Below, in pieces: positions 16,816-63,522 of a stretch of 64,000 nt of DNA. Origin of the DNA: an uncultured Verrucomicrobiota bacterium (GTDB lineage Bacteria; Verrucomicrobiota; Verrucomicrobiia; JABWAM01); the NCBI GenBank assembly GCA_964653025.1, contig CAZZBZ010000006.1:6292-70291 (forward strand), given 5' to 3'. The position numbers and the translations under genes were made by a program. Under the pieces are notes generated by a model. That model did no database searches, had not been told where the DNA came from, and was given only the letters and a program-made list of their open reading frames with translations. Positions within the stretch are counted from its first letter, which is position 1. Each line of letters starts with the position of its first letter.

Positions 16816-16831
16816 GCGCAGATGCGGGTGA

Positions 16832-17632: not shown

Positions 17633-18496
17633 TCAGCGACTTTTCCGTCCCCAGGTTAACGGACGAGGCATGCCGTCATCCATGGTGAGGTGGGTGCTCC
17701 GGTAAACTGCCGGGCTGGTGTGGAATACCTTTCGGAAGGCCCGCGTGAACGGATGGACGGAGCAATAGCCGCTGAGTTCTGCAATCCTCTTGATAGGAAC
17801 CGGTTGCGAGGCGGTGAGTGCCGTGGCCGCCGCGCGCATCAGTTGATCGAGCAGAAAGCGGCGAGGGGACATGCCAAGCACCAGGCGAAAACTCCTCGAA
17901 AAATGCGCCGTGGAGAGGTGGCATGCCCTCGCCATGGCGCCCACGGTCCAGCGCTCCTGGGGGCACATGATGATCTTCTCAAGGAGCGGAAACAGTTGTG
18001 CCCGGAAAGGACTGAGTTCCACGGGTTGCCTGGGGCTTTCTGGCGTCCGCTGGGGAATTTCGGCGAGTGCCAGGGTGATGGCCGCATCCACCTGCTGGTG
18101 GATTAATGATCCCCCTTTGAGAAACCTTGCCCCAACGAGATTCAGGATCGCCCGCAGGGCGGGGGAGGCGCGGAACCTCTGAAAGGAGTGTCGTACTAGG
18201 GCCCAGAACGGTGGGGCAAGGTGAAATTTGAAGGATGCGTGCCGATGGCATGACTTCGAGGTAAACGCATGTCGGAGCAGGGGAGGGATCAACCAACCAT
18301 CACCAGGACGGCCGTCGAAAGGCGGATGGCCTTCGATGAACACCGTGGTTCTTCCCTCGAGGAGGATGTCGAGTTGGAAGTAATGATGGAGGTGCTGCCG
18401 CATCTGGTAGCCCTCGGGAGGAATCGTCGCAAAGTCCACTCTCACGATTTCGGTGACCACAGGACCATGCATGGGATGAAGGAGAAGGGGGCACAA
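17633..18496 (-). CDS. AraC-family transcriptional regulator
   Basis: The C-terminal dual helix-turn-helix of the AraC family is present (..HLSTAHFSRSFRLVLGMSPRRF... IKRIAELSGYCSVHPFTRAFRKVFHTSPAVYR). The N-terminus is a cupin-like sensing domain. It is divergent from a Gfo/Idh/MocA gene. Confidence 0.8.
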   Translation of the reverse strand: MCPLLLHPMHGPVVTEIVRVDFATIPPEGYQMRQHLHHYFQLDILLEGRTTVFIEGHPPFDGRPGDGWLIPPLLRHAFTSKSCHRHASFKFHLAPPFWALVRHSFQRFRASPALRAILNLVGARFLKGGSLIHQQVDAAITLALAEIPQRTPESPRQPVELSPFRAQLFPLLEKIIMCPQERWTVGAMARACHLSTAHFSRSFRLVLGMSPRRFLLDQLMRAAATALTASQPVPIKRIAELSGYCSVHPFTRAFRKVFHTSPAVYRSTHLTMDDGMPRPLTWGRKSR

Positions 18497-42944: not shown

Positions 42945-43050
42945 CCTGCGCTCTTAACCCGGCCCACGCGTTCCCGCAAGGAGGAAGGGGGAGGAAGGGG
43001 GACGCGAGCGGGTTTGCAGCCCGCGCCGGTCCTGCTAGGGTTGGTGCCGC

Positions 43051-44448
43051 ATGCCATTGTGCCTCCACAACACCCTGACCCGCAAGGTCGAGGAGTTTCG
43101 CCCGTCGGAACCCTCTGGTCGCTCGGTGACGATGTACTGCTGCGGGCCGACGGTGTACGACTCGGCGCACATCGGCAACTTTCGCACGTTTGTGGCGCAG
43201 GACCTCCTTCGCCGTTGCCTCGAGGCACACGGCTGGGAGGTGCGCCACGCGATGAACATTACCGACGTGGAGGACAAGATCATCCGCTCGATCAAGGTCT
43301 CGGGGGAGTCGCTTGAGGTCTTCACCCGCCGCCACGAGAAAACCTTCCTCGATGACTTCGATGCGCTGGGCTGCCGCCGTCCCACCGTGATGCCGCGGGC
43401 GACAGAGCATATCGGGGAGATCATCGCCCTCGTGAAGCGCCTGCAGGAGAAGGGCGTGGCCTACGCGGCGGCGGACGGCTCCGTCTACTTCTCCATCGAG
43501 CGCTTTCCCGACTACGGGAAGCTCTCGAGGCTCGACCGCTCGCAGCTCAAGCCGGGTGCGCGGGTGAGCGCCGATGAGCACGCGCGCGAGGCCTATGGCG
43601 ACTTCGCCCTCTGGAAGGCATGGACCGACCGCGATGGCGCCGTGGCGTGGGAGAGCCCGTGGGGGAAGGGTCGCCCCGGCTGGCACATCGAGTGCTCCTG
43701 CATGAGCATGAAGCACCTCGGGGAGACCCTCGACCTGCACTGCGGGGGCGAGGACCTCGTCTTCCCGCACCACGAGGACGAGATCGCCCAGAGCGAGGCC
43801 GCCACGGGTCGCCCCTTCGCTCGCTTCTGGATCCACAGCGCGCATCTGCTCGTCAATGGCCAGAAGATGTCGAAGTCTGCCGGTAACTTTTTCACCGCCC
43901 GCGACCTCTTCGCAAAGGGATATACCGGGCGCGAACTCCGCTACGCGCTTCTCTCGGCGCACTATCGCCTGCCACTCAACTTCACCCTCGAGGGACTCGA
44001 TGCGGCGCGCCAGGCCCTTGCCCGCCTCGATGCGTGGGAGGAGCGCCTCCGCGCCACCGCGGGGCACCTTCCTTTGTCGGCTGCGGGCGGGTCGCTCCGG
44101 CAGGCCTTCGGCGCCGCGCTCGACGACGATCTCAATATCTCGGCTGCCCTCGGCTGCCTTTTCGATGCCCTGCGCGCCTCGAACCGCGCCCTCGACGAGG
44201 GGAAGCTGTCGCCGGCGGAGGCTGCCCGCGACCTCGCGGACTGGCTCGCGGTACGGGAGGTCCTGGGCCTTCCCGCGCCCACCCCGAAAGCCGCCCCTCC
44301 GGAAGTGGAGGCGCTTGCCCGCGAGCGGCAGGCGGCGCGGGCCGCGAAGGACTGGAAGCGCTCCGACGCCCTGCGCGCCGAGATTGTGAAACTTGGCTGG
44401 GCCGTCAAGGATGTTCCCGGCGGTTTCCAACTTTCCCGTTCGCCTTGA
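43051..44448 (+). CDS. cysS: Cysteine--tRNA ligase
   Basis: The motifs CGPTVYDSAHIGN (HIGH), KMSKS and the zinc-ligand Cys are present. The full 465 aa is collinear with CysS. Confidence 0.9.
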   Translation: MPLCLHNTLTRKVEEFRPSEPSGRSVTMYCCGPTVYDSAHIGNFRTFVAQDLLRRCLEAHGWEVRHAMNITDVEDKIIRSIKVSGESLEVFTRRHEKTFLDDFDALGCRRPTVMPRATEHIGEIIALVKRLQEKGVAYAAADGSVYFSIERFPDYGKLSRLDRSQLKPGARVSADEHAREAYGDFALWKAWTDRDGAVAWESPWGKGRPGWHIECSCMSMKHLGETLDLHCGGEDLVFPHHEDEIAQSEAATGRPFARFWIHSAHLLVNGQKMSKSAGNFFTARDLFAKGYTGRELRYALLSAHYRLPLNFTLEGLDAARQALARLDAWEERLRATAGHLPLSAAGGSLRQAFGAALDDDLNISAALGCLFDALRASNRALDEGKLSPAEAARDLADWLAVREVLGLPAPTPKAAPPEVEALARERQAARAAKDWKRSDALRAEIVKLGWAVKDVPGGFQLSRSP

Positions 44449-44513
44449 TCCGTGCGTTCGAGAGCCCTATTCTACGAGCGTACGTGGCAGATCCCCTCGA
44501 ACCGTCATCACTC

Positions 44514-45500
44514 ATGAACCCCATCTCCCCCTATTGGAAAGGTCGTCGCGTGACGGTGACCGGTGCGGCCGGCCTGGTCGGTTCCCACCTCTGTGACCTG
44601 CTCGTCGAGGCGGGTGCCGAGATCCTCGCCGTGGACGACCTCTCGAAGGGAATTCGCGAACGCCTTGCCCATCTCGAGGGCAGGATCCGCTTCGTGAAGG
44701 CCGACCTCTGCGTCCCCGGCGCTGCCGAGGAACTCTTCCGTGGGCAGCAGGTGATCCTTCACCTCGCCTCGCGGGCCTACGGGATTGCCTACAGCGGGGG
44801 CCACCACGACGAGATGCTCCGTTTCAACGTGGACCTCAACCACAAGGTCCTCCGCGCTTGTGCCGCCGCGCGGGTCGAGCGCGTCCTGGCGGTGAGTTCC
44901 TCCTGCGTCTACCCGGATGAAGCCCCCTCTCCGACGCCGGAGCTTCCCGTGAATACCGGCGAGCCCGAGCGGGCCAACATCGGCTACGGGCAGGCCAAGC
45001 GTCAGCTCGAGATCGAAGCCACGGATCTCTCGCGCTCCACGGGCATCGGCGTGGCCATCGTTCGCCCCTTCAACGCCTACTCGGGGCGCTACAAGTGGGA
45101 GGGCGAGTACAGCCACGTGATCCCCATGCTCGTGAAGCGCGTCATGGAGGGAGAGGAGCCTCTCGTCATCTGGGGCACGGGCCGCCAGCGTCGCAACTTC
45201 CTTCATGCCGTGGATTTTGGCCGCTGCTTCCTCGCCGTGACGGAACACCACGCGAAGGCCGATCCCGTGAATGTCGGCTACGAGGAGACCGTCTCCATGG
45301 CCGAGCTTGCCGCCGCGATCGGCGAAGCCGCCGGGCGAAAACTCACCATCCGCTTCGACCCCTCCAAGCCCGAGGGTCGCCTTGTGAAGAGCGCGGATTC
45401 CACCAAACTCCGCCGCGTCACGGGGGGCGTGGCGCCCAGCATCCCCCTCGCCGAGGGCCTTCGCGAGATGATCGAGTGGCACCGCCGATCCTTCGCCTGA
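44514..45500 (+). CDS. NAD-dependent epimerase/dehydratase family protein (sugar-nucleotide modifying)
   Basis: ATG 44514 gives MNPISPYWKGRRVTVTGAAGLVGSHL, a Rossmann fold. The catalytic YxxxK is in YGQAK. The ORF-track start at 44034 overlaps cysS. Confidence 0.8.
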   Translation: MNPISPYWKGRRVTVTGAAGLVGSHLCDLLVEAGAEILAVDDLSKGIRERLAHLEGRIRFVKADLCVPGAAEELFRGQQVILHLASRAYGIAYSGGHHDEMLRFNVDLNHKVLRACAAARVERVLAVSSSCVYPDEAPSPTPELPVNTGEPERANIGYGQAKRQLEIEATDLSRSTGIGVAIVRPFNAYSGRYKWEGEYSHVIPMLVKRVMEGEEPLVIWGTGRQRRNFLHAVDFGRCFLAVTEHHAKADPVNVGYEETVSMAELAAAIGEAAGRKLTIRFDPSKPEGRLVKSADSTKLRRVTGGVAPSIPLAEGLREMIEWHRRSFA

Positions 45501-46750: not shown

Positions 46751-49700
46751 TCACTTCTTCTTAAAAAGCCCGTCGAGGAGGTTCTGGAGAGGCGGTTGCT
46801 GGGGCGGGGTGGGCTGACCGGGCTGGGCGGGTTGCGACGGTTGCTGCTTCTTCTCAAGCATCTGCTTGAGGTAGTTGACGCCGGTGTTGATCAGCGTCTC
46901 GCCGACAAACTTGCTGGTGTCGAGGGCGACCTGCGGTTCGGAGAATGTCCCCGTGATGGTCGCGGCGCCCGGGAGGCGGAGCCAGTCACCCCGCTCGGCG
47001 CTCATGGTCTTAAGGAGGGGGGCGAGGAGCGAGGATTTCGCCATCACCGCGCGGTTCATCTTGATCGTGGCTTCCATCGCGAGCCGTTGGTCGAAGAACG
47101 CGTTGCCGCGGAGGGAGACCTGCAGGGCCGAACCGATCACGTGGAGGTTGTCGGTGGACAGTTTTCCGGAGGCGATTTTTGCGGAGCCTTCTACGGAGTT
47201 CACGGTGGAGGCCGTGATGTCCGGAGACTGGAGGATGCCGCCGAGGCGGGTGAGGGCCTTCCCGATCGAGGGGAGTTTCTCAAGGTGGGCGTCGCGGATG
47301 GCGAGTTCGAGGTTGCCATCGAGATTTTTGTCGAGCATCTCGCGGGAGAGACCGCGGCCCGATCCGTAGATGCGTCCAGTGAGCGTGCCGCTAATTTGTC
47401 CACGCAAAGAAGGCGTGAATGTTTCCACGAGAGGGCCGAGGGCGAGGTTCTCCACCTTCGACTCGAAGCGGAAGGGACCGGGGGTGCCGTCCTCGCCCTT
47501 GTCGGTCTTCACGCTGGCCGAGAGCGGTGCGCCGCCGAGGGTGGCGTGTGCGTCGGGCACCTCGATGGTGTTGCCCTTCACGCGCAGGGGGAGGACAAGG
47601 TTGGCGAGGGTGAAATCGCGAACCTTGAGCGAGTCCACCTTCGCGTCGAGGGTGAGGTCGAGCGCGCGCGACAGGGCGGGCGGGGCGGTGGGAGGGGCAT
47701 GGGATGGCACCGCGGCGGACGGGGAAGGGGGGGTGGCAGTCGCGGGTGACGGGGTTGCGACGGACGGGAAAATCTGGTCGTACCAAGGGGTGAGATCGAG
47801 GGACTGGCCAATGAGCTTGAGGTTGGCGAAAAGCAGGGACGGTGTGGATTTGAGGACGCCCGAGGCCTCGACACGGTTTTTCGCCCTGCCAACGGGATCG
47901 AGTTGGAGCGCGGTCGACCGGAGGGTGAGTGTGCCGTTCGTGTTCCACGAAAGGTTGGCCGAGAGGCCGGCGTTGAGGGGCTTGAGGCCCGACGGCGCGG
48001 TGCCCCCGATGACGAGGTTCTTCGCCTCGACCTTCCCGTCGAACGAAAGCGTGCCTGCGTCCCAGGCAACTTCGCCCTGTCCGGAAAAGAGGAGGGATCG
48101 CAGCTCGATGCCGGGAAGCCACGCGGCAAGGAGGGGGGCGAAGGCGGTCTCGCGGCAGTCGCTGGCCTCGAAGCGAGTGCGAAGGGCGCCCGTGCGCGCG
48201 TTCCAACTTGCGTTGGCGAGGAGGATGCCTGTGGGTTGATCCGCGACGAGCAGGGTAAGGCGGGTGTCGTTGGCGCGGAATTCAGGATTGCCCCAGCCGA
48301 CGACGGCGTCGAGTTGTGCTGCGAGGCGGGTGTATCGGATGCCCTGCCATACGATGGAGACGTTCCTGGTCGAGGTGGTTGTCCGTGCGACAAAGCGGCC
48401 GGTTGCGTCAAGCTTCCATTCCGCCGTGATGGATGCGGTGCCCGAGGGGATTGCGAGGTCGGCGACCGGATGGAGGGCAAGGAGAGTGGGGAGCGGGGCG
48501 GAAAGGACGAGGCGTCCCGCGCCGGCATGCGCGGAGAGATTCCAACTCCCGTCGAGGGTGGCCTCTGCGATTTCTTCGCCTTTCTCGATGAGTCGGAAGG
48601 AGTTTTTCTCGAAGCGGAGTGTTTTGAGGTCGCGCAGGCTGGTGCGTCCCACGACCTGGGCAGCGGCGTCGGTAAACGAGATTTTGGGGGTGACGAGGGC
48701 GATTCCTGCGGCGCCAATGCGGCCATCGAACGAAAGGAGATGTCCCTGCTCCGAGGCAGTGATCTTGAGCGTGGCCGCAAGCGTGCCCGCGTCGAGGCGC
48801 CAGCCGGGAGGGAGGTCGAGGAGGCGCAGGAAGGGTGCGATCTCGAGCGGGGAAAGTTGGAGGCTGAACTCGGCGTCCTCGGCAGGGGTGCCGAGGTTTT
48901 CGCCCTCCTTCCACGAGATCGTCATGGGGCGGTTGAGCGTCCCCTTGAGAAGTGGACCGCTACCTTGGCGCGTGGTGTCGAGGTTGAGTTGGGAGATTGT
49001 GGCTTGTCGGATGCGAAGGTTGATTTCGATTTCGTGATCGAGGGAGATCTGGATGGGGCGAGCGAAGAGGGCGGAGAGATTGGGGGAGGAAACCATGAGC
49101 GGGTTCGCGGTGAGGCGGCCTTTGGTGCGAATCAGGGTGGCGTCGTGTCGGAGGGAGAGGTGGCCGGTGTACCCGATCTGCGTCGGTCCAAAATCCATGT
49201 GGCGCGCACCGAAGAGAAGATTGAGCACCGGCTTGCCCACAGGGCCGATTTCCATGTCGAGTTCCGCCTCTCTCGCCGCGAGGTCGAGGGGGCCCGTTGC
49301 CCGTGCGGTGGCGAGCGCGGTTCCCGCACGTTCCACGGTGAGGGCCGCCTCACGGAGAAGGCCCTTGCCGTTCACACCGGATCCAAGATCGAAGTGCAGG
49401 GTTGCGGAGAAACCTTCGAAACGCTCGGCCCCGGCGTGGCCAGCGAGGCGATCAATAAAAAGCTCACCTTTCGCGGAGCGAGGGATGAGCGCCTCGTCGA
49501 GGTTCACCGCGAGTTTTGCGCGTGCGTTGCCGGTGGCGGTGGTGGCGTGCGCTTCCTGTCCCTCTTCCCCGGGGGCTTCTTGCTTCAGGGAGAATCCCAG
49601 GTCGAGGTCGAGGGTCGCGGAGCCGCCCGGACGAAGGTCTTGTGCGGAAAGGTTGGCGGTGCCGATCTCGATTTTCCTGAGGGGGGCCTCGTGGACGAGG

Positions 49701-50251
49701 TGCAGGTTGCGGATCGAGAGATTCCCGACCCAAACAGGGAGCGGGGGAGGTGCGTCAGTACTTGTCGAAACGGGCGTCGGGACTTTCGCGGTCGCAGCGG
49801 CGGGTTGGAAAGCCTTTGGCATGTCCGCGAAGGTGCCGTCCGGTCTCTCGACGAGGTGGATCGACGGGGATTCGAGTTGCAGGGTCTCAGCTTCAAAGCG
49901 CCCGAGGAGCGCGGCCCAGCCGTGATAGCGGGCGGAAAGACGCACGGCGGCAAGGAGCGGGCGTTCGGCCGGGCCGATGCGCAGGTTCTCGATCTCGATC
50001 GAGGAGAACGGGTGCCAGGCGACCCGCGAGGCGGTGATCTCCATACCGAAATTTTTTGAGAGATGGGGCAGGATCACGCGGCGGACGCCGGCATCGCTCG
50101 TCAGCCAGAACCCGAAGCCGAGCAGGAGGGCGAAGAGGGAGACGCACAGGATGGCGGTGAGCCCAAGCCATCGGGCACCTCGATTTTTTGGGGCCGATGC
50201 AGGCACCGGTTCTTGGGAAAGGCCGTGAGTTGGGGGAGCGGCGTCAGGCAT
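46751..50251 (-). CDS. AsmA-family / TamB-like large envelope protein
   Basis: ATG 50251 gives MPDAAPPTHG..., followed by the TM helix RWLGLTAILCVSLFALLLGFGFWL. The roughly 1100-aa body is beta-rich and repetitive. The C-terminal region is AsmA-like with a Gln/Pro tail. The ORF-track N-terminal extension to 50926 has Arg/Pro-biased junk composition. Confidence 0.7.
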   Translation of the reverse strand: MPDAAPPTHGLSQEPVPASAPKNRGARWLGLTAILCVSLFALLLGFGFWLTSDAGVRRVILPHLSKNFGMEITASRVAWHPFSSIEIENLRIGPAERPLLAAVRLSARYHGWAALLGRFEAETLQLESPSIHLVERPDGTFADMPKAFQPAAATAKVPTPVSTSTDAPPPLPVWVGNLSIRNLHLVHEAPLRKIEIGTANLSAQDLRPGGSATLDLDLGFSLKQEAPGEEGQEAHATTATGNARAKLAVNLDEALIPRSAKGELFIDRLAGHAGAERFEGFSATLHFDLGSGVNGKGLLREAALTVERAGTALATARATGPLDLAAREAELDMEIGPVGKPVLNLLFGARHMDFGPTQIGYTGHLSLRHDATLIRTKGRLTANPLMVSSPNLSALFARPIQISLDHEIEINLRIRQATISQLNLDTTRQGSGPLLKGTLNRPMTISWKEGENLGTPAEDAEFSLQLSPLEIAPFLRLLDLPPGWRLDAGTLAATLKITASEQGHLLSFDGRIGAAGIALVTPKISFTDAAAQVVGRTSLRDLKTLRFEKNSFRLIEKGEEIAEATLDGSWNLSAHAGAGRLVLSAPLPTLLALHPVADLAIPSGTASITAEWKLDATGRFVARTTTSTRNVSIVWQGIRYTRLAAQLDAVVGWGNPEFRANDTRLTLLVADQPTGILLANASWNARTGALRTRFEASDCRETAFAPLLAAWLPGIELRSLLFSGQGEVAWDAGTLSFDGKVEAKNLVIGGTAPSGLKPLNAGLSANLSWNTNGTLTLRSTALQLDPVGRAKNRVEASGVLKSTPSLLFANLKLIGQSLDLTPWYDQIFPSVATPSPATATPPSPSAAVPSHAPPTAPPALSRALDLTLDAKVDSLKVRDFTLANLVLPLRVKGNTIEVPDAHATLGGAPLSASVKTDKGEDGTPGPFRFESKVENLALGPLVETFTPSLRGQISGTLTGRIYGSGRGLSREMLDKNLDGNLELAIRDAHLEKLPSIGKALTRLGGILQSPDITASTVNSVEGSAKIASGKLSTDNLHVIGSALQVSLRGNAFFDQRLAMEATIKMNRAVMAKSSLLAPLLKTMSAERGDWLRLPGAATITGTFSEPQVALDTSKFVGETLINTGVNYLKQMLEKKQQPSQPAQPGQPTPPQQPPLQNLLDGLFKKK

Positions 50252-50362
50252 TCCCCCATTGTACACGTCGGAGAATGGGGGGCAAAGTGGCAAAAGGGGG
50301 GGCAAGGAGACTCCCGGCTTGCCCCGGGGTCGGGGGTGTGGTTCCAAGGGGGTGGCACCCTT

Positions 50363-51562
50363 ATGAACTCGCCGCTTCCCATCCAGTTGGAGATTTCCGC
50401 GGCCGAAAGGTCCTGTCTCGAACGGGACTACGAGCTTTACGCGACGGATGAGTTGCCCGCGGCATGGGAGGACTTCGTGCAGGAGGAGTATGGCCTCGAT
50501 GTGGCGGGGAGGTTTGCGGGCATGCCGATCCGCAATCCTTTCGGTTGCGCGGGCGGACCGCTTTGTCGGAACATCCTGCAGGTGCGCGAAGCCTCCGAGG
50601 CGGGGCTTGGGTTCATCACCCTGATCGCGGCGCGGGCGCGCGATGAAGCGGGCGCCACCATGGTGCAGGACTGGCGTGGGTTGGAGTCCGAGATCGATCT
50701 CGAGGAGCGCGACGGTGGGCGCTCGCTGACGTGGATCGAGTGCGGGTGGTACGACACCCTCGATGTTTACGCGGAGTTTCTGCGCACCGCCCTCGATGTG
50801 GGGGGGCGTCGTCGGATGCTTGTGATCCCGGCAATACGCATCAGCGTGAACGCGCGCGGCCAGGCGAGTCCGCCCGAGGTTCGCCACACGGTCCGCCTGC
50901 TCCAGGAGGTCTGGCACGGGGCACATCCCGACCAGTCGCTTCCGCTGGAGGTGGAGGTCCTTCCCGAGATGCGCGGACTTTCACCGGCGAACAAGAAGAA
51001 AGCGCTGCTGCGCGCCTACGGCGCGGTCGCGGGTCTCATCAAGGCCGCATCCGAGCATCCGCGCTATGTGTGCGCGGGACTGAAGCTGGGCTCCGCCGCG
51101 TTCGATGCCGCCTTCCAGGCCCGCGCGGTGGAGGCGGCCCTTGGCGGGGCGGAGAAGCCAGGGTTCCTTGTCCTCTTCGAACGCCTGCGGCGGTTTGAGC
51201 GGCGGCGTGGCGGACGGTGCACGGTCTCGTTCGGGGGTGAAGAACTCTCGCGGCGCAACCTCGCGGCCCTCGATCGCCTCGACCGGACGGTGGAGTTCAG
51301 CGCCCTTGGCGACATCACCACGGGGAGGAGGATGGTCGAGTACGCGCTGCGCGGCGCGACGAGCGGGCAGATGCACACGATCTTCCATCTCCCCTCGTCC
51401 TTTTACCGTCGCCAAACGGGTACGCGGATCGATCGGGCCCTCCATGAGTTGGTTTTCCACCCGCACCACGGCCTCGTTGCGGCGATGCTCCACGTGAAGG
51501 CAAGGGCCGGCGTCGCCCGATTTCTCGATCTCGCGAAGGCGCGCGCGAAACTCGCGAGCTGA
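50363..51562 (+). CDS. Hypothetical TIM-barrel protein with a dihydroorotate-dehydrogenase-like N-terminal motif
   Basis: ATG 50363 gives MNSPLPIQ... The block GRFAGMPIRNPFGCAGGP resembles the DHOD/DHPD-family substrate loop G.KF.NP.GLAAG. I cannot confirm the rest. Confidence 0.4.
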   Translation: MNSPLPIQLEISAAERSCLERDYELYATDELPAAWEDFVQEEYGLDVAGRFAGMPIRNPFGCAGGPLCRNILQVREASEAGLGFITLIAARARDEAGATMVQDWRGLESEIDLEERDGGRSLTWIECGWYDTLDVYAEFLRTALDVGGRRRMLVIPAIRISVNARGQASPPEVRHTVRLLQEVWHGAHPDQSLPLEVEVLPEMRGLSPANKKKALLRAYGAVAGLIKAASEHPRYVCAGLKLGSAAFDAAFQARAVEAALGGAEKPGFLVLFERLRRFERRRGGRCTVSFGGEELSRRNLAALDRLDRTVEFSALGDITTGRRMVEYALRGATSGQMHTIFHLPSSFYRRQTGTRIDRALHELVFHPHHGLVAAMLHVKARAGVARFLDLAKARAKLAS

Positions 51563-55238: not shown

Positions 55239-56963
55239 TTGACCCCCGGTTCGCCCCAGCGCGGGAGAATCGTGGGGGTGTGGTTTCCCCTCGCCATCCT
55301 CGTGGCGGTGTGGATGGCCGCCGCGTGGTGGGCGCGGCGCGAGTGCCTGCCGTACGACGTCAACAACACCGACGTCGGAACTTATCTTTTCCAGGCCGAG
55401 ACCTTCGCTGCCGGGCAACTCGCACGCCCGACGCCCGAGCCGCGTGAGTTTTTCTCGCAGTGGCAGGCAATCGTCCGGGATTGTTCCTTTGCCTACTACC
55501 CGCCGCTGCCGGCGGTCGCCATGGCATTGCCGATTGCGTTCGGCGGGTCGCCCTTCTGGGTTCCTTGGCTCTCGTCGGGTTTGGTGCTGGTCCTGACCTT
55601 CATCTGGATCAGGCGCCTTGCAGGGAAACGCGCCGCGTGGTTCGGGACGCTTGTTCTTGCGGTCTCGCCCTTCTTCGTCGCCAACGGCCTTTCAGTCCTC
55701 TCGCATGCGTTCACCCTGCTCCTGACCGTCGCGTTTCTCGTGGCCGTGGAACGCTGGCGGGCGATGGGATCTCGCGGGTGGGCGGCGGCAGCGGGAACGC
55801 TTCTCGCGGCGGTCTTCGCCTCGCGCCCCGTGAACGCCCTCGCGCTCGGGATCGCGTGGGTGCCATGGGCCGTCGCATCGACAATTGCCAACTGCCAATT
55901 GCCAACTGAAGAACGGAAACGGCAAGGCTTTATGGGGGTCGCGGGTTTTGCGGTTGGGTTTGCGGCGCTGTTCGTGCCGCTGGCGCTCTACTACCACGAG
56001 ATGGCAGGGCGGTGGACGCTCAGCCTGTTCACGGACTACTGGCCGAGGAACCGGTTCGGCTTTGGGCAAGGACTGGGGCGTGGGGAGACGGGACACTACT
56101 TCCAGACTTTTACGGATCACGATTTTTTTGGATTTCTTGGGAATCTGCGGTACAGCGCGGAAGGACTGGCGACCTGGTGGACGGGAAACGCATGGCTTTC
56201 GGCGGCGCTGCTCGGACTTGTGGGAATCCTCCTCGTTCTCCGTATCAAGAATCGGATTTCATCAATTGGCAGTCGGCAGTTGGCAGTTGGAAATGTTGGG
56301 TGGCCTCTGCTGGTGTGGCCTGCGGCGCATGTCTTCCTCTACGCGGGCTACTTCACCCCGAGCACTCCGACGACGGGGCCGCGCTACCTCGCCGAGCTCA
56401 TGCCGGCGCTTGCGCTCGCCACGGGGTGGGGCATGGCTCGCCTGGCGACCGGGGGTGTGGCAAGGCGGCGTCTCGCGCTCCTGCTTTTCTCGGTTGCGAT
56501 GGTCGTGTCGGCTCAGGCCGTGGTGAGGTTCCTTCGGCTCAATCAACTCGGTATCCCGGCCCGACGGGCGGTGGAGCATGGTGTTGTCGGGGAAGCGCGG
56601 GCGCCGGCGGTGGTCTTCCTGCGTTCCTTCTGGATCGGCCATCCGCTCCCGATCTTTCGGAATCTTCCCAGCCTCTCGGGTCCGGTGATCTTCGCATGCG
56701 ACCGAGGGGCGGAAGATCGACGGTTGGTGGAACGGCACCCCGACCGCAACGCCTATGTCCTCGCGCTGTTCCCCGAAGGGCGCGGGGTGCGGACGGAGAT
56801 GGTGCCTGTTTATCGGGCGAACGACCGCCGGTGGCTCCGTGCGCCTGAGTCGGTGGAAGCTCCCTTCTTTGTCGGGAGCCGCTTCACTCCTTCGCTGCGG
56901 CTGGAGGGGGAGGCGGCGAGGAAGCTCTTTTACCCGCAGCCGGACGAGATCGAGGGACAGTGA
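55239..56963 (+). CDS. Polytopic membrane protein, GT-C glycosyltransferase-like
   Basis: It has about 12 TM helices. The N-terminal periplasmic-loop motif NNTDVGTYLFQAETFAAGQL has the GT-C D-x-G-x-Y pattern. It carries two inverted 4x heptamer arrays in frame. Confidence 0.6.
   Translation: MTPGSPQRGRIVGVWFPLAILVAVWMAAAWWARRECLPYDVNNTDVGTYLFQAETFAAGQLARPTPEPREFFSQWQAIVRDCSFAYYPPLPAVAMALPIAFGGSPFWVPWLSSGLVLVLTFIWIRRLAGKRAAWFGTLVLAVSPFFVANGLSVLSHAFTLLLTVAFLVAVERWRAMGSRGWAAAAGTLLAAVFASRPVNALALGIAWVPWAVASTIANCQLPTEERKRQGFMGVAGFAVGFAALFVPLALYYHEMAGRWTLSLFTDYWPRNRFGFGQGLGRGETGHYFQTFTDHDFFGFLGNLRYSAEGLATWWTGNAWLSAALLGLVGILLVLRIKNRISSIGSRQLAVGNVGWPLLVWPAAHVFLYAGYFTPSTPTTGPRYLAELMPALALATGWGMARLATGGVARRRLALLLFSVAMVVSAQAVVRFLRLNQLGIPARRAVEHGVVGEARAPAVVFLRSFWIGHPLPIFRNLPSLSGPVIFACDRGAEDRRLVERHPDRNAYVLALFPEGRGVRTEMVPVYRANDRRWLRAPESVEAPFFVGSRFTPSLRLEGEAARKLFYPQPDEIEGQ
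55883..55908. repeat. Tandem heptamer array (AAYTGCC)x3.7 inside CDS 55239..56963
   Basis: The sequence is aattgcc aactgcc aattgcc aactg. Confidence 0.8.
56264..56291. repeat. Inverted copy of the heptamer array (caattgg cagtcgg cagttgg cagttgg)
   Basis: The reverse complement is ccaactg ccaactg ccgactg ccaattg, which is the same AAYTGCC unit family as 55883..55908. The two arrays form an imperfect 26-bp inverted repeat (about 4 mismatches) separated by 355 bp. Both are in frame in the CDS. Confidence 0.8.
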
Positions 56964-56967
56964 ATAA

Positions 56968-56988
56968 CCGCCGCCTTCCAGGCGGCGG
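56968..56988. terminator. Bidirectional hairpin between convergent genes
   Basis: CCGCCGCC-ttcca-GGCGGCGG is a perfect 8-bp GC stem. It lies exactly between the stop at 56963 and the stop at 56993. Confidence 0.5.
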
Positions 56989-56992
56989 TGGT

Positions 56993-57844
56993 TCACTTCA
57001 TCTTGAACTCGACGGAGAGAGGGGGAGGATTTGTGCCGAGACGGGTGCTGAGCCAGTAAACGATGACGGTATTTCCCTCGGTCTTTTTGGTGCCGTCGGG
57101 CGGGTTGAAGCGCACGAGTTCTGCTCCCGTCGGGAGCGCGACGCCCGCACCGGCGATGCCGCCGGTTCGGGGAAGACGCCCGAGAGGGACATCGAGGGAC
57201 CCGCCACGAAGAAGGCGTGGCCGAACATTGGTTTCAAAAGCACGAAAAACGAACTGCGTGGATCCCGGGGGGAGCGGCTGGTCGAGGTTCAGCGTGATAT
57301 AGAGCACGTTGGTGTGGGTTGGGTTGCTGCGCAGGGTGAAGCGCATCGGCGATCCGTCGAGGCGGTAATAGCCGATCCATTGGTCGCGGCGCCGGGGAAA
57401 CTGGCGTTCCACTTTTGTGATGGAGTTGAAGCCCGGGTTCCATGCGGGCTCCGTGGCCCATGTCACGGAGGGGTGGTTGGTGTCGGCAAGGACCAGCATG
57501 CGGAGGGAAGCGAGAGGGAGACGGGTCTTGGCAGCTTCGGTCTCGCATGCCTCGCGGAGGAGTTTCAGCGGTGCGATGGGCAGGGAAGGGCTGGAGTGCG
57601 TCTCGGTGTGAAACCATGCGGGGGGGCCTTGAGGTTGGCTCTCTTGCCACCGGAGGGCGATGAAGGCGGCGGCGCCCGCGAAGAACAGGAGGGTCAACAT
57701 CCACTTGAGCTGAATGGGAAAAGGGGGGAGCGGTTTTCGTTGCGTCTTGAAACGTGGAGCCGCGGCCGCCGCGCCGGGGGGGACGTGGCGAAAGCCTTCT
57801 CGCATCGAGATGAACAGCGCTTTGAGAAGATGGAAGGGGTTCAT
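56993..57844 (-). CDS. Hypothetical membrane-anchored protein
   Basis: The ORF is 283 aa. There is one TM helix (MLTLLFFAGAAAFIALRW). It is downstream of, and co-oriented with, the pilin-like gene. Confidence 0.45.
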   Translation of the reverse strand: MNPFHLLKALFISMREGFRHVPPGAAAAAPRFKTQRKPLPPFPIQLKWMLTLLFFAGAAAFIALRWQESQPQGPPAWFHTETHSSPSLPIAPLKLLREACETEAAKTRLPLASLRMLVLADTNHPSVTWATEPAWNPGFNSITKVERQFPRRRDQWIGYYRLDGSPMRFTLRSNPTHTNVLYITLNLDQPLPPGSTQFVFRAFETNVRPRLLRGGSLDVPLGRLPRTGGIAGAGVALPTGAELVRFNPPDGTKKTEGNTVIVYWLSTRLGTNPPPLSVEFKMK

Positions 57845-57916: not shown

Positions 57917-58684
57917 TCAAGGGAGGGTGGTCTGCCAGTCGGCGTTCTTGTCGTACCAGTAGGTCATCTGGTTGGTTTCGTAGTGGTTGAAGGCGGCGAC
58001 GTGGCCGTCGGCGAAGAGGAAGTTGGCCGCGCCGTTGTGGGGAAGCGGGTAGGTGGAGCCGTTATGGGAGAAGCCGGTGCGATCAGTGACCTCGTTGGTG
58101 GGATCGAAGTCCTGGTCGTTGCGGTCTGTGGAGAGATCTTCGCTCATGAGGATGAACGCGGGTGGGTTGCTGATGCGGCGGGCGTCGAGGACGAATGCGC
58201 CGGTCTTCGATCCGCCGCCGACTCCGGGATCACCCCCGCCTTCCTTGTAGGGCTGGATGAGGTTGAGGTAGTAGTCCACTTGGACCACGGGGGTGACCCA
58301 CTTCGGGAGGCCACGGTCTTGCAGGATGCCGGTATCCTTGAAGTAAGGGTAGAGGAGCCGGGTCCATGACTGCGTGGATCCGGAGGAGTTCCACGCGGGG
58401 GAAGGGAGTCCGCTCTGGGCGACGAGTTGGTTTTCGTTCTCATCCCAGTACATCCGGACCGCGTAGCCGAGCTGCTTGAGATTATTGGCGCACGACATGG
58501 CCTGGGCGCGGTAGCGCGCCTTCGAGAGCGAGGGCATGAGCAGGCCCGCGAGGATGCCGAGGATGGCCACTACGACCAAAAGCTCGATGAGAGTGAAGGC
58601 GGTGAGCGGTGAGCGGTGAGCGGTGAGCAGGCTTGCTCCGTGTTGCGCGAGGAAACGGGGAGTTGGGCGAGACTCAAACATCAT
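57917..58684 (-). CDS. Prepilin-type N-terminal cleavage/methylation domain protein, H-X9-DG (DUF1559) family
   Basis: ...[28 protein letters not shown] is the pilin-like N-terminus, preceded by a 26-aa leader. The C-terminus [17 protein letters not shown] is an exact H-X9-DG motif. A 4x GGTGAGC heptamer array lies in the leader-coding region. The gene overlaps the upstream GT-C gene by 4 nt (ATGA). Confidence 0.8.
58601..58628. repeat. Perfect tandem heptamer (GGTGAGC)x4 in the 5' coding region of the pilin-like gene
   Basis: The sequence ggtgagcggtgagcggtgagcggtgagc is read directly. On the coding strand it encodes [11 protein letters not shown] in the leader peptide. The 7-nt unit is not a multiple of 3. 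Confidence 0.9.
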
Positions 58685-60867
58685 GGAGGGAGGATGTGGG
58701 GGGGCGGTGCGGGAGGCGAGGCTTGGGGGGAGCTTACCGCAGAAGGGGCGTTGGTGGAAATGATGGTTTGCGGGGGCGCGTTGCTGACCGTGACCGAGAG
58801 GACATTGCCCGACACGCGAACAACGATTCCCGATGGGATGATCGCGAGCGTGGCGACGTTCGATGAGATGACGGCCACCGGAAGGGAGACCGTGGCGGAG
58901 GGCGGGTTCGTCGCGGGGAGTGGCGGGGGGAGAGGGAGAACGGTCCTGCGGGTCGCCATGAGGCGACCCTGTTGCCCGTTCAGTTCGCCGAGTTCGCGTT
59001 CCATGGCCGTGATGCGGTCGCGGCTTTGCTGGGCACCGGGGTACTTCTGTTCGTGTTCCTCGCGGACGAGGTTGAGGCGGTAGCGGACCTGCTCGATGCG
59101 TTCCTGGATCTGTTCGAGCGTCAGCCCGCGGGAGGGAGCGGGGGTGGCAGTGCCGGGTTTTACGAAGGCGATTTCAGTGAGCGTCCAGACGGTGGAGCGA
59201 ATTTCGCCCTCGGGGCGGAAGGCGGGCTGCAGGCACTCCCCGACGGGAAGGAAGTCGAAGCGGGGGCCGAGGCGGGCCTTCCACGCGCGCGCGACCGCCT
59301 GGTTGCCGAACATCGCAACGCGTCGGCCAGCATCGAGGTGTTTGGCGATGAGGCTGCGCTGGATCTCGGCGAGTTCGGGTTCGCGCTTGCCCTCGAGCAT
59401 CTTCTTGATGGCGAGCGCCTTCTCGCGGTGAAAGGGATGGGGCTCGCCGTTTTCCAGCACCTTCGTCCAGCGCTGGATGGTGGCGCGGTCGAACATCCCC
59501 TGTCCATAAAGGGTGTGGTTACCCGCAAACTCGATGAACTGTAGAGACCCCTCGTCCGAGAGGATGACGGCGCTTTCGGGGAGTTTTCTACGGAGGAGGT
59601 CGGTGGCGTTGGCGGAGAAGGTGTTGCGTTCGAGCATGGGCATGAGGCGCTCGGTCGCGATGCCCTGGTTGACCCACGCGATGAAGAAGACGAGGAGCCC
59701 GGAGATGGCGACCCAGGCGGGGCGGAGGGGTTGTGCGTGGCAGAGCAATCCCATGCCGGCGATGATGAGCGGGGGGAAGATGCTCACGAAAAATCGGATA
59801 TAGGAGGGGCCCTCCCCGGCGGGAGCCCAGTAGTAGGCGGTGTAAAGGAGCAGCGTGGGCAGGATCCAGAGCGCGAGGAAGAGCCCCCGGCGGAACTCGT
59901 GGACGAGGTACCAGGCCATGCCAGCCAGCCCGAGCGGGAAGAGCAGGTAAAGCCCGGGAAAGTCCATCCGCGCCAGCATCAGCGGCCAGTTCTTCAAGAA
60001 CCATTTCTGGCTGAAACCCGTGGCCTCGCCGCACAGCGCATACCCTGTCTTGAGCGGTCCTCCGAAGGCGACGGTGTGTTGCCAGAGCAGCGGGGCGAAG
60101 GAGAGGAGGGCGGCGACCAGGATCAGCACGAGGTCTCGTACAAAGGGAAACAACACCCTCGATGGCGGGTTCTCGCCGCGGTCCCGCCAGAGGCGGATGA
60201 GGCGCGTGGCGACGATCGCGGCCGCCGGTAACGCGAGGAGGGCTTCCGTATAACGGGCACTGACAGCCCAGGCCATGGCCGCCGCGCCGAGCATCCCGCG
60301 CCACCCACCCCCCTTCTCGCCCCATTGCCAGAAAAAATACATCCCCCAGAGCGAGAAGAACGTGGAGGAGGGGTGACTCAGCGCCGAGACGCTGAAATAG
60401 GCATGCATCGGGTTGGTGGCCAGGAGGATTGCGGCGAAGGCGCCGGCGAGGTCGCCCGCGATCGCGCGGCCAAGGAGAAAGATGCCGATGACTGCGAGGG
60501 CGGAGAGAAGTGGGTTCACCCAGAAAGCCGCCGAGGGGCCGCCGAGACGCCATGCGACCGCGCAAAGGGATGGATAGCCGATCGGATACTTCGCGGCGTA
60601 GAGGTTGCGTTTCGCGTCCACGAGCACCCAGTTGCCGCTGATAAACTCATACGGGTCGGAGGACTGCTTCCGAACGTCCCCGGTCGTTGCGAGGCGTTTT
60701 GCGGTGACGAGGTAACCGTTCTCGTCGGTTCCCCCGAAGGAGGGTACGTAGTAGGCGCCCACCATCGCCACGAAAAGGGCGGCGGCTGCGATAGCGGCGA
60801 GAGCCGAGGAGAGTCTGCGGACCATCCCTCGAATGTGAGGCCGGACGGAGGGACGCATCAACCCCAA
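58681..60867 (-). CDS. GT-C family membrane glycosyltransferase (ArnT/PMT-like) with a C-terminal soluble/coiled-coil extension
   Basis: The N-terminal motif [21 protein letters not shown] has the DE.GY signature of GT39/GT83. There are about 11 TM helices. The C-terminal region of roughly 250 aa has a coiled-coil and a Pro/Ser/Thr-rich tail. Confidence 0.75.
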
Positions 60868-60938
60868 ACCCGGAGGGTTCGGTTGCCATGCGCCCCTGTC
60901 TCGGGAATGTCGCCTCCGTCCTTGTCCATCCCGTAGCG

Positions 60939-61811
60939 ATGGGCTACTCTAAAAACTACCCGATGGCCAAACCGCGCGTATCGCAGGTCGAGCATGAGCG
61001 TCTGCTCCAGACGGTGCAGATGTTCGAGGAGGTTGCCCGCACTCAGCCGGGCGATATCCAGTCACTCGAAATTCTCAAGGAGGCCTACCTCAACCTTGGC
61101 CGCGACGACGAGTCGGTGACCACTTCCAAGAAGATCGCTCGCGCCTACCTTTCCGCCGGCCAACTCTCCTCCGCCATTCTCGAATACGAGGGCGTCATCC
61201 AGCGCTATCCGGACGACGCCGAGTGCCGGGCCGCCCTCCATGAGCTCGAGCAGAGCATGGCCGCCGTGGGGACCGCCGGCACCGACCAATCCACCGCCGG
61301 TGCCGCAGAAGCCGCAGAGCAGGTTCTCGCGGAGGCCGAGCAGTTCGAGGACGGTAACGAGGCCCTCCTCCGCTTCTTCCAGGAAAACGGCCTTGTCAGC
61401 GAGAAGGACGGCGTCACCGTTCTCGCCGCCATCAGTGCCGCCGCCAACGAGGCCCCGCCAGACAGGCCTGCCCCCTCGCTTCTCGCCATGCTCGCTGAAC
61501 GCGGCATCGCCTCCATGGAAAAAAGTCTTGGCCTCATCGTTGAGAAAACGCGCCTCCCCTTCCTGCCGCTGGCCATCTGTGAGGCCGATAGCGGGCGCGC
61601 CAATCTTCTCGAACGCGGGTTCTGCCTCCGCCACCTCGTGCTTCCCTTCGACCAGGTCAGCCGCACCCTCCTCGTGGCCACCGTCAATCCCTTCGATGCC
61701 CGTGCCAAGCACCATGTTGAGGCCGCTGCGGGGACGCGTGTCCAGTGGTACGTCACCTCGCCCGAGGACATGACCTCCCAGCTCAAGAACGTCTTCCGTA
61801 TCGTCGGCTAG
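60939..61811 (+). CDS. Protein with a GspE/PilB N-terminal (T2SSE_N) domain. The start could be 60888 or 60963.
   Basis: The C-terminal roughly 100 aa (LPFLPLAICEADSGRANLLERGFCLRHLVLPFDQVSRTLLVATVNPFDARAKHHVEAAAGTRVQWYVTSPEDM) match the GspE N-terminal fold. The N-terminal half is TPR-like and helical. Confidence 0.6.
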   Translation: MGYSKNYPMAKPRVSQVEHERLLQTVQMFEEVARTQPGDIQSLEILKEAYLNLGRDDESVTTSKKIARAYLSAGQLSSAILEYEGVIQRYPDDAECRAALHELEQSMAAVGTAGTDQSTAGAAEAAEQVLAEAEQFEDGNEALLRFFQENGLVSEKDGVTVLAAISAAANEAPPDRPAPSLLAMLAERGIASMEKSLGLIVEKTRLPFLPLAICEADSGRANLLERGFCLRHLVLPFDQVSRTLLVATVNPFDARAKHHVEAAAGTRVQWYVTSPEDMTSQLKNVFRIVG

Positions 61812-61821
61812 CACCCCTTCC

Positions 61822-63522
61822 ATGAAGCCCTTTGGAGAGAGAATTGCAGACGCCCTCATCGAGGACGGTGTGCTCCAGCCCACCCAACTTGAGGAGGCCA
61901 TGTCCCAGCATAAGACTCAGGGAGGTCGCCTCCTCAAGATCCTCCTCGACCACCAGTATGTGACCGAGCAGGACATGATGGTCAGCATGGGGCGCACCCT
62001 CGGTGCCGCCCCCATCAACCTCGCGCGCGTCAAGATTCCTCCCGAGATTGCCGAGCTCGTCCCGCGCGACCTCGCCCGCAATCACCAACTCCTCCCCGTC
62101 GCCCGCCTCGGCAACCTTCTCTACGTGGCGATGGCCGACCCCCTCAACGTCCTCGCCCTCGATGACGTGAAGCAGATCACCCACCTCGAAGTGGTTCCCC
62201 TCATTGCCACCGAGCGCATGGTCGCCGACGCGATCTCCAACCTCGACGCCCAGGGCAGCCAGCAGATCGAAGAAATTATCCGCGACGAGAACATCGATAT
62301 CGAGATCTCCGAGGACAAGCCGATGGAGGAGGTGGACGTCACCGCCAACGACCCCGGCGCCGCCCCCGTCATCCGCATCGCGAACCTCATGTTCGCCTCC
62401 TGCGTCAAGGACAAGGCGAGCGATATCCACCTCGAGTGCTACGAGAAGATTCTCAAACTTCGCTACCGCGTGGACGGCGTGCTCTTCGATTACCCCGCGC
62501 CCCCGAAGTCCATGCAGGGCGCCATCATCTCACGCCTCAAAATCATGGCGCATCTCGATATCTCCGAGAGGCGTCTTCCGCAGGACGGACGGATCCGCAT
62601 CAAGATGGCGGGACGCGACATCGATTTTCGCATGTCCTTTCTCCCCACCAAGTACGGGGAGAAAGTGGTGGGCCGAATCCTCGATAAGTCTGCTCTCGGC
62701 GGCACGGTCGCCGACCTTGGTCTCGACCCCCAGTCGCTCAAAATCTTCATGGGGGCCCTCGACGAGCCACAGGGGATGATCCTCGTCACCGGCCCCACCG
62801 GTTCCGGGAAGACGCGCACCCTTTACACCGCGCTCGCCGAGATCAACAAGCCCCAGTACAACATCGTCACCGTCGAGGACCCGATCGAGTACGAGCTTGC
62901 CGGGGTGAACCAGGTTCAGGTGAAGCCCGACATCGGATTCACCTTTGCCGCGGCCCTGCGCTCCATTCTCCGCCAGGATCCCGATATCGTGATGATCGGG
63001 GAAATGCGCGACCAGGAGACCGCCCACATCGGCGTGGAGGCCGCCCTTACCGGCCACCAGGTGCTCAGTACCCTCCACACCAACGATGCGGCCGGCGCGA
63101 TCACCCGCCTCACCGACATGGATATCGAGCCGTTTCTCACGGCATCGAGCCTTTCCCTCACCTGCGCCCAGCGCCTCATGCGCCGCATCTGCACCAACTG
63201 CAAGGAACCCCAAAAAGTTCCCGAAAAGCTTTGGGAGCAGCTCCACCTCGACCCCAAGAAGGAAGCCGAGTTCACCTACTACAAGGGGCGCGGCTGCGAC
63301 CGCTGCAAGAACAAGGGCTACGCCGGCCGATGCGCCATCCTCGAGATGATCCCCGCCACCGAGCCGATTCGGAAGCTCATCATCGAGCGCGCCACCGCCT
63401 CCGAGATCAAGCAGACCGCCCTCCAGGAGGGGATGCTGACCCTGCGCATGACCGGCCTCCTCAAGGCTCGAGAGGGAATCTCCACGCTCGAGGAGGTCCT
63501 CGGCGTCACCACCACCGACTGA
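61822..63522 (+). CDS. pilB: Type IV pilus assembly / type II secretion ATPase (PilB/GspE family)
   Basis: The Walker A motif is GPTGSGKT. The Asp box and His box are present. The C-terminal tetracysteine motif is CTNC...CDRCKNKGYAGR. Two N-terminal T2SSE_N domains are present. Confidence 0.9.
   Translation: MKPFGERIADALIEDGVLQPTQLEEAMSQHKTQGGRLLKILLDHQYVTEQDMMVSMGRTLGAAPINLARVKIPPEIAELVPRDLARNHQLLPVARLGNLLYVAMADPLNVLALDDVKQITHLEVVPLIATERMVADAISNLDAQGSQQIEEIIRDENIDIEISEDKPMEEVDVTANDPGAAPVIRIANLMFASCVKDKASDIHLECYEKILKLRYRVDGVLFDYPAPPKSMQGAIISRLKIMAHLDISERRLPQDGRIRIKMAGRDIDFRMSFLPTKYGEKVVGRILDKSALGGTVADLGLDPQSLKIFMGALDEPQGMILVTGPTGSGKTRTLYTALAEINKPQYNIVTVEDPIEYELAGVNQVQVKPDIGFTFAAALRSILRQDPDIVMIGEMRDQETAHIGVEAALTGHQVLSTLHTNDAAGAITRLTDMDIEPFLTASSLSLTCAQRLMRRICTNCKEPQKVPEKLWEQLHLDPKKEAEFTYYKGRGCDRCKNKGYAGRCAILEMIPATEPIRKLIIERATASEIKQTALQEGMLTLRMTGLLKAREGISTLEEVLGVTTTD

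Follow-up and report, generated by a model that had tools for sequence, protein, structure and literature searches.

A window of 64,000 nucleotides from an uncultured Verrucomicrobiota bacterium (contig CAZZBZ010000006.1; "the window" denotes this whole stretch of DNA) was found to carry a three-gene cassette, encoding a GT-C-fold membrane glycosyltransferase, a pilin-like protein of the DUF1559/H-X9-DG type, and a small membrane protein of no described family, here termed P283. The three-gene unit was conserved in Verrucomicrobia and relatives, and a functional coupling between the GT-C enzyme and the pilin-like protein was well supported. The first-pass annotation of this DNA had proposed that the enzyme is dedicated to O-glycosylation of its pilin-like neighbor. 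The coupling in that proposal was borne out by conserved synteny and by a conserved gene overlap, whereas the assignment of the pilin-like protein as the substrate was rivaled by a model in which the three proteins form a complex.

A conserved three-gene cassette

The cassette consisted of three successive open reading frames (ORFs) on the minus strand, 58681..60867, then 57917..58684, then 56993..57844, with a coding-type GC content at third codon positions (0.74-0.83). The first ORF, taken from the ORF list and assigned by AlphaFold, Foldseek, PMT_2 and hydropathy, encoded the 728-aa GT-C enzyme from a TTG start; an ATG at 60825, the codon of Met15, was an alternative start, and there a 99% identical database protein (P0001) begins. 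The 3' end of this gene (CCT CCA TGA) overlapped the start of the pilin-like gene by ATGA at 58681..58684 (minus strand), the junction reading ...CTCCCTCC-ATGA-TGTTT with the TGA of the GT-C gene sharing letters with the ATG of the pilin-like gene, and the overlap reported in the first-pass annotation was thereby confirmed directly in the sequence. The pilin-like gene (57917..58684, minus strand, 255 aa) was assigned by Pfam and NCBIfam matches and by its orthologues beside GT-C orthologues. It was separated by 72 nt from the P283 gene (56993..57844, minus strand), which encoded 283 aa with a single transmembrane (TM) helix and a predicted periplasmic domain. The same arrangement was present in a 99%-identical copy of the locus in the Verrucomicrobiia metagenome-assembled genome (MAG) GCA_049318025.1.

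Conservation was examined by a forward scan, in which the GT-C alignment was compared with one genome per species and yielded 74 loci, with seven metagenomic contigs carrying homologues in addition (loci are numbered with the prefix L). Loci were judgeable when the GT-C gene was an orthologue (37-69% identity) with sufficient flank; with the window counted, this set comprised 23 loci from Verrucomicrobiota and Lentisphaeria. The same pilin subfamily adjoined the GT-C gene in 18 of the 23. These adjacent pilins were 40-56% identical to the window pilin, compared with about 30% for unrelated DUF1559 proteins, and an ATGA or GTGA overlap was found in every other locus with a GT-C gene followed by a pilin gene that was read (18/18, including L110 from the same species). 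As background, other pilin-motif ORFs were rare, with 8 in 891 kb of fetched flanks. The linkage of GT-C and pilin genes is not due to chance. The genes around the cassette varied by locus and included, among others, response regulators, GT9/GT4 genes, a peroxiredoxin, and DNA polymerase III tau. In one clade (L077 and L085) the order was permuted to pilin, P283, GT-C, and in L077, where both junctions were read, both were 4-nt overlaps. The changing flanks and the permuted yet linked order indicated that the genes move as a unit. The conserved synteny that the first-pass annotation had asked for in other genomes was thus found, for one specific pilin subfamily and down to the 4-nt overlap. 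The recurrence held for Verrucomicrobiota and Lentisphaeria. No pilin gene adjoined the more distant GT-C homologues (about 30% identity) of Phycisphaerae, Tepidisphaerales and Acidobacteriota.

GT-C orthologues without the pilin gene were dispersed in a neighbor-joining tree, so that the linkage looks ancestral and repeatedly lost. One of them (L012) was an extra GT-C copy in a MAG that also holds a complete cassette (L008). In the two Lentisphaeria loci the GT-C gene lay beside the pilin gene; L016 had no recognizable P283 gene, and the L017 sequence stopped inside the pilin gene. At the expected P283 site of L016 (3695..5010 in that locus), behind the GT-C-pilin pair, there was no convincing ORF over about 1.3 kb.

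The linkage was also approached from the pilin side. A reverse scan of metagenomes with the C-terminal half of the pilin yielded nine orthologues (L082-L090). A P283 homologue followed the pilin gene immediately in all nine. A GT-C gene was adjacent in L085, L088 and L089, and two truncated contigs were not judgeable for it. At non-orthologous DUF1559 loci (L091-L109) neither a GT-C nor a P283 match was found. The pilin-P283 pair is therefore the tightest link in the cassette, and the GT-C gene is a usual but non-obligatory neighbor. A steady association with PilB or the type II secretion system ATPase was considered and rejected, as PilB-like genes in the vicinity were limited to the window (and L110), L077 and L012.

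The GT-C enzyme

Sequence profiles placed the 728-aa protein at the margin of known families. Its Pfam scores were 24.8 bits for STT3 (PF02516; threshold 24.5, yet spanning 48 residues only), 23.1 for PMT_2 (below the cut-off of 26.1), and 21.9 for PMT (PF02366; below the cut-off of 22.7), with no MIR match. The score against TIGR04154 was 16.3 for a cut-off of 450. Across the family, PMT_2 was matched by 22 of 23 members, with a best E of 1.8e-10. The 728-aa protein had no match to the ArnT NCBIfam equivalog PRK13279, which the paralogue 5173..6912 does match, and none to Wzy_C at E <= 0.01; no WWD(Y/W)G motif was seen in its sequence. A profile built from 23 family members and compared with the PDB retrieved no solved structure by sequence, ArnT included.

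The structural model was clearer. AlphaFold gave a model with a mean predicted local distance difference test (pLDDT) of 83 and a predicted TM-score of 0.80, in which about 11 long membrane helices extended to residue ~405, in agreement with the hydropathy peaks, and the first loop comprised 73 residues with a beta-hairpin. The TM region was followed by an alpha/beta domain (~430-568), a coiled coil (584-643), and a disordered Pro/Ser/Thr-rich tail. Judged by the helix count, the C-terminal domain would be periplasmic. The tail itself (58681..58960, the C-terminal ~90 codons) was of low confidence, and a hydrophobic beta-hairpin-like stretch occurred there only in some orthologues (P0002, P0003, P0010, P0018). 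Foldseek against the PDB returned 30 matches at E <= 1e-3, every one of them a GT-C protein: STT3 came first (2e-9), followed by ArnT (5ezm, 2.2e-7) and then by AglB, PglB, ALG12, DPY19, AftB and Pmt4, with ALG9, AftA and EmbB also among the matches. The highest target-normalized TM-score belonged to ArnT (0.58), and no WaaL or PglL-type ligase was among these PDB matches. On the predicted structure, the protein belongs to the GT-C superfamily at the level of fold.

The acidic motif expected of such enzymes was present as codons D48-E49-N50-G51-Y52 (60712..60726, minus strand), in the predicted first periplasmic loop just after TM1 (helix 10-37 in the model). D48, N50 and Y52 were nearly invariant in the 23-sequence alignment A1, D48 being conserved in at least 90%, in the context G-x-DENGY. 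D48/E49 are candidates for the catalytic Asp/Glu, on the model of the acidic motifs that GT-C enzymes carry in loop 1. One GT-C copy without the pilin gene (L011/P0044) has lost the motif and reads TANGY. Further residues conserved in the family were K93-Y94-P95, H165, R205-Y206, G275-Y276...E281, YTAYYW (the Y342-Y346 stretch), and R358. Counting helices from the positively charged N-terminus, the conserved residues would lie on the periplasmic face.

The 728-aa protein is not an ArnT orthologue. It stands at the edge of PMT_2, and its likeness to STT3 and ArnT is at the level of fold only. The automated "ArnT family" name carried by these proteins was corrected accordingly. The genomic setting agreed with this assignment: no arn genes (ArnB/C/A/D/E/F) occurred in the variable flanks of other genomes, and the neighbors of the GT-C gene in the window were the pilin-like gene, the P283 gene, a GT-C-like gene, and MshEN/PilB genes. 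Grouping with ArnT was the outcome that the first-pass annotation had set against its own proposal, and the missing ArnT NCBIfam match, the sub-threshold PMT_2 score and the profile that found no structure all showed that the enzyme does not so group.

The pilin-like protein

The pilin-like protein carried the hallmarks of its class at both ends. At the N-terminus it matched N_methyl (21.7 bits, cut-off 21.2) and TIGR02532 (22.9, cut-off 16.3), and a leader of 29 aa preceded the class III signal/N-methylation motif A|FTLIELLVV. The codons of the prepilin motif F30-T-L-I-E-L-L36 (58577..58597, minus strand; translation and alignment A3) placed Glu at +5 and Ala at -1, and F1, T2, L3 and E5 were invariant across 22 mature pilin orthologues. 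The match to DUF1559/SBP_bac_10 (PF07596; 33.9, cut-off 23.3) covered profile positions 2-65 of 268 only, the N-terminal part. At the C-terminus, TIGR04294 (H-X9-DG) was matched at residues 215-231 (26.1, cut-off 19) through codons H216...D226-G227 (58004..58039, minus strand), of which H, D and the next H were invariant in orthologues. The residue at -1 was Ala in the window, in place of the usual Gly, and G, A, S or R in orthologues. Its use as an argument against processing was rejected, Ala being common in unrelated DUF1559 genes too and therefore non-discriminating.

The cassette pilins formed a distinct orthologous subfamily, short (~195 aa mature) and single-copy, with motifs of their own (DPTNE, TGFS, QMTYWY...NWQ). 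Alignment of 22 orthologues revealed variable loops enriched in Ser/Thr at mature positions ~68-75 and ~177-182 and invariant Thr/Ser at mature positions 167, 174 and 212. These loop residues and invariant positions are candidate glycosylation sites only, picked from the alignment. N-glycosylation was considered and rejected: the pilin orthologues had no conserved N-X-S/T sequon and the enzyme had no WWDYG.

The leader contained a 7-nt tandem repeat (58599..58628; GCGGTGA on the plus strand, GCTCACC in the gene sense) of 4.3 copies, found by Tandem Repeats Finder with 100% matches. Because the repeat lies inside the 29-codon leader, adding or removing a single unit would put the mature protein out of frame with the ATG, a possible on/off switch. 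Phase variation through this repeat was left unsupported, as the copy number was equal in the same-species contig L110 and no length variation was found. A related contig, L111, encoded a P283 92% identical to that of the window and a pilin ~97% identical from Cys65 on; the leader and N-terminal helix of this pilin differed and had lower GC (L111 1..240). Its gene probably either acquired the 5' end by recombination or sits on a chimeric contig end, at the repetitive N-terminal part of the pilin, and on account of this L111 was uninformative on the leader repeat.

P283

P283, mentioned in the first-pass annotation as a small membrane protein following the pilin-like gene, was confirmed and proved to be the most constant partner of the pilin-like gene. 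In every Verrucomicrobial locus an orthologue of 23-36% identity came directly behind the pilin gene. Hydropathy placed the one TM helix at residues ~44-67, and Pfam and NCBIfam held no match. A word-based search found one homologue and a profile search added three; an exhaustive hidden Markov model search found only 53 cluster representatives among 1.84 billion. The family is about the size of the GT-C orthologue group and confined to these cassettes. The AlphaFold model of P283, built from 5 sequences, was poor (pLDDT 55), and Foldseek with this model returned nothing significant, the best match being a generic beta-sandwich of carbohydrate-binding-module type at E 0.07.

Neighboring genes and other features of the window

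A GC-rich hairpin (56967..56989), seen directly in the sequence, lay between the convergent stops of the P283 gene and of ORF 55239..56963. It read ACCGCCGCC-TTCCA-GGCGGCGGT, a perfect 9-bp stem with a 5-nt loop. The hairpin was absent from the listing of a consensus terminator scan, as it has no T tract. The bidirectional terminator annotated here thus exists as a hairpin between convergent genes, and its function as a two-way terminator is plausible.

Upstream of the cassette and divergent from it were a gene for a TPR+MshEN protein (60888..61811) and then one for a PilB/GspE-type ATPase (61822..63522; TIGR02538, 633 bits), the N-terminus of which was an MshEN domain of the c-di-GMP-binding type. 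The start codons of the divergent TPR+MshEN gene and of the GT-C operon were 20-62 bp apart. The window ended before further pilus genes could show. Two pilin-like genes were present in the whole window. The second, a DUF1559 gene at 16832..17542 (region 14245..18496), lay between a gene for an 898-aa beta-propeller-type protein and one for an AraC-family regulator; its product was 29% identical to the cassette pilin, and it had neither a GT-C nor a P283 partner.

The claim that the window holds three GT-C paralogues was loosely true. ORF 55239..56963 was homologous to the 728-aa protein across ~160 N-terminal residues (hhalign probability 95.6%), a partial relationship, and ORF 5173..6912 carried PMT_2 and was distant (hhalign probability 28.6%) and more ArnT-like (PMT_2 58 bits, ArnT NCBIfam 57.7 bits). 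Membership of 55239..56963 in the cassette was rejected, since beyond the window it was conserved in the close relative L111 alone and was missing beside the other cassettes. This ORF contained two heptamer arrays (55882..55908 and 56266..56290), made of CAAYTGC repeats and their reverse complement. The arrays formed 32-nt inverted arms that were 84% complementary with 344 nt between them (4 matches compared with 0.02 expected). Compared with the L111 orthologue (83% identical), both sites fell in stretches that vary or contain indels, the second array being an in-frame 21-nt (7-aa) insertion.

A DUF6268 gene (4207..5172) directly abutted the ArnT-like PMT_2 gene 5173..6912 with zero gap, resembling another tight GT-C pair. 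In 41967..45500 a formyltransferase (Formyl_trans_N and Formyl_trans_C) was encoded near a 488-aa NAD-dependent epimerase/dehydratase; the two resemble the halves of ArnA and might supply the ArnT-like paralogue, or alternatively the formyltransferase is fmt. Region 46751..50926 encoded a 1391-aa AsmA/YhdP/DUF748-like protein, a candidate for envelope lipid transport.

Discussion

For the function of the cassette we favor dedicated periplasmic glycosylation of the cognate pilin-like protein with P283 as an accessory. This reading is backed by the conserved linkage, by the GT-C fold and conserved DENGY loop of the enzyme, by the distinctness of its two partner families and by the precedent in P. 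aeruginosa, and we hold it at about an even chance. The three genes would form one operon for a dedicated protein-glycosylation module. The GT-C enzyme would sit in the inner membrane with the D48-E49 loop and K93, H165, R205/Y206, E281, Y342-Y346 and R358 turned toward the periplasm, and would draw its sugar from a polyprenyl-phosphate-linked donor. The pilin-like protein, whose N-terminal hydrophobic helix would insert into that membrane and leave the globular domain in the periplasm, would be the acceptor while both partners are membrane-anchored, the likeliest sites being Ser/Thr of the loops at ~68-75 or ~177-182 (mature numbering). P283, predicted to be membrane-anchored and periplasmic, may serve as a pilin-specific accessory, either a holder or an adaptor, in the way that TfpX assists TfpW.

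Several observations weigh against dedicated glycosylation of the pilin. The linkage was not obligatory: five of the 23 judgeable GT-C orthologues stood alone (L001, L010, L011, L012, L075), among them the closest relative of the window enzyme (L001, 68% identity, its sister in the tree), and four of seven judgeable pilin-P283 pairs had no GT-C gene in the fetched flanks (L082, L084, L087, L090). No genes for the biosynthesis of a sugar donor were consistently linked to the cassette. The Ser/Thr-rich loops were variable in sequence, the strictly conserved Thr may be structural, and the pLDDT-55 model of P283 is too poor to back any role. Moreover, the enzyme gene comes first and the start of the pilin gene is translationally coupled to it, whereas P. 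aeruginosa has pilA first. Such coupling implies that enzyme and pilin are made in about equal amounts, an unusual ratio where one is an enzyme and the other an abundant filament subunit. Equal amounts would suit a complex no less well than they would suit an enzyme acting on a plentiful substrate.

The main rival is a reading that we hold to be possible and less probable than glycosylation of the pilin: the three proteins would form a stoichiometric inner-membrane complex, much as eukaryotic oligosaccharyltransferase surrounds STT3 with single-pass subunits. In it, the pilin-like protein and P283 would be non-substrate accessory subunits that recruit or bind a different acceptor or pass it to the GT-C enzyme, be it some other protein of the envelope, a polysaccharide or a lipid, and the pilin N-terminus would be solely a membrane anchor. 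Besides the position of the enzyme gene upstream of the pilin gene, the conserved 4-nt overlaps between GT-C and pilin genes, and often between pilin and P283 genes, suggest matched synthesis; all three proteins are predicted to combine a membrane anchor with a periplasmic domain; the cassette was not consistently near pilus-assembly genes; and the top fold matches of the enzyme were STT3 subunits of multi-subunit complexes. DUF1559 proteins, of no known function, have also been described as solute-binding-type; genomes encode dozens of paralogues, and no filament has been demonstrated for them (PMC2754498, PMC10632474). However, the prepilin motif was fully conserved, including Glu+5, which a mere anchor would not need, and the likeness of the P283 model to Ost1 was not significant (E 0.4-0.65, with the pLDDT-55 model). 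To our knowledge, the characterized bacterial GT-C enzymes work without such subunits.

It is improbable, in our judgment, that the enzyme acts independently of the pilin, modifying lipid A, the lipopolysaccharide (LPS) core or another envelope glycan in the manner of ArnT and having its neighbors through co-regulation. Close homologues are automatically annotated as "ArnT family glycosyltransferase" or "4-amino-4-deoxy-L-arabinose transferase-like", the PMT_2 family matched by these enzymes includes ArnT-like proteins, and ArnT was among the top fold matches with the highest target-normalized TM-score. LPS-core-type GT9/GT4/GT2 genes adjoined the cassette in L076 and L081, and GT-C copies without the pilin gene exist. 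Yet the ArnT NCBIfam model matched the paralogue 5173..6912 and not the 728-aa protein, and the family profile retrieved no ArnT sequence from the PDB. Co-regulation alone would also leave unexplained why the start/stop overlap persists in 18 other loci, why the genes stay linked where their order is permuted, and why a single pilin subfamily and a single tiny accessory family accompany the enzyme while the flanks change. Taken more broadly, we propose only tentatively that the cassette encodes a bacterial multi-subunit GT-C complex. A DUF1559 protein would be its dedicated partner, whether as an obligate glycoprotein made by the enzyme or as a subunit that has a structural role or presents the acceptor, and the new single-pass family P283 would take part as well.

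With 68-74 copies in each genome, DUF1559/H-X9-DG pilin-like proteins make up the largest family of paralogues in Planctomycetes (PMC10632474, PMC2754498). Verrucomicrobia commonly encode them as well, and no member has a known function. Together with a GT-C enzyme and a tiny accessory family, the single-copy pilin subfamily constitutes a defined, testable three-gene system. Were the pilin-like protein the acceptor, pilin-dedicated glycosylation by GT-C enzymes would extend from one Pseudomonas lineage to bacteria of the Planctomycetes-Verrucomicrobia-Chlamydiae (PVC) group; were it a subunit, the enzyme would be an unusual multi-subunit bacterial GT-C enzyme. Either relation, substrate or subunit, would provide the first concrete role for a DUF1559/H-X9-DG protein.

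Comparison with known systems

In the literature searched on DUF1559, H-X9-DG, and GT-C with pilin and Verrucomicrobia, no description of this cassette was found. Its pilin resembled the DUF1559 paralogues of Planctomycetes and Verrucomicrobia in the prepilin N-terminus, the N-terminal DUF1559 part and the C-terminal H-X9-DG. Unlike the typical DUF1559 genes, which are multi-copy and not so linked, it was single-copy and tied to P283 and usually to a GT-C gene.

AglB and STT3 glycosylate archaeal type IV pilin-like proteins. With ArnT (GT83), PMT (GT39) and STT3/PglB/AglB (GT66) the enzyme shared the overall GT-C fold as predicted (Foldseek E 2e-9 to 1e-4), an acidic motif in the first external loop, and weak Pfam similarity to PMT_2, PMT and STT3. 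It differed from them in scores that were at or below thresholds, in having no ArnT equivalog, MIR or WWD(Y/W)G, and in partner pilins without a conserved sequon. The cyanobacterial pilin glycosyltransferase Ogt was rejected as a comparison, being a cytoplasmic GT41 enzyme.

The first-pass annotation had likened the cassette to PglL/PilO with a different enzyme clade. PilO/TfpO, PglL and PglL-ComP (Wzy_C) transfer glycans in the periplasm from a lipid-linked donor to Ser/Thr of pilin (bioRxiv 10.1101/2020.04.19.049825), and like the cassette they have an enzyme gene beside, or dedicated to, a pilin. The enzyme here is indeed of another family, with no Wzy_C match and no WaaL/PglL-type fold match, and the analogy gave way to a closer precedent, TfpW, a GT-C enzyme encoded beside pilA and followed by tfpX.

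In the pilA-tfpW-tfpX locus of P. aeruginosa group IV, TfpW, a D-arabinofuranosyl transferase of the GT-C class, is predicted to have 11 TM helices; it also has a periplasmic C-terminal domain and an essential acidic loop-1 motif, and it O-glycosylates the pilin at Thr64/Thr66 (bioRxiv 10.1101/2020.04.19.049825). Its interaction partner TfpX is a small accessory protein of the membrane (bioRxiv 10.1101/2020.04.19.049825), and the architecture of TfpX/Y/Z has been described (PMC11841053). Like TfpW, the enzyme of the cassette is encoded directly beside a pilin gene and accompanied by a gene for a small membrane protein with a putative periplasmic domain, and the TfpW sites Thr64/Thr66 correspond roughly, in mature numbering, to the first Ser/Thr loop of the cassette pilin (68-75). 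Unlike that locus, the order here is GT-C, pilin, accessory with translational coupling; the predicted C-terminal domain is alpha/beta with a coiled coil and had no TPR match, whereas that of TfpW is TPR; P283 has one TM helix whereas TfpX has three; the partner is a DUF1559/H-X9-DG protein and not a proven major pilin; and the hosts are PVC bacteria and not Pseudomonadota. Compared by gene neighborhood and published description, TfpW is the closest precedent, and the cassette would work most like it. If the pilin-like protein is indeed a partner in a multi-subunit enzyme, the cassette would represent a second, independently evolved pairing of a GT-C enzyme with a pilin besides TfpW.

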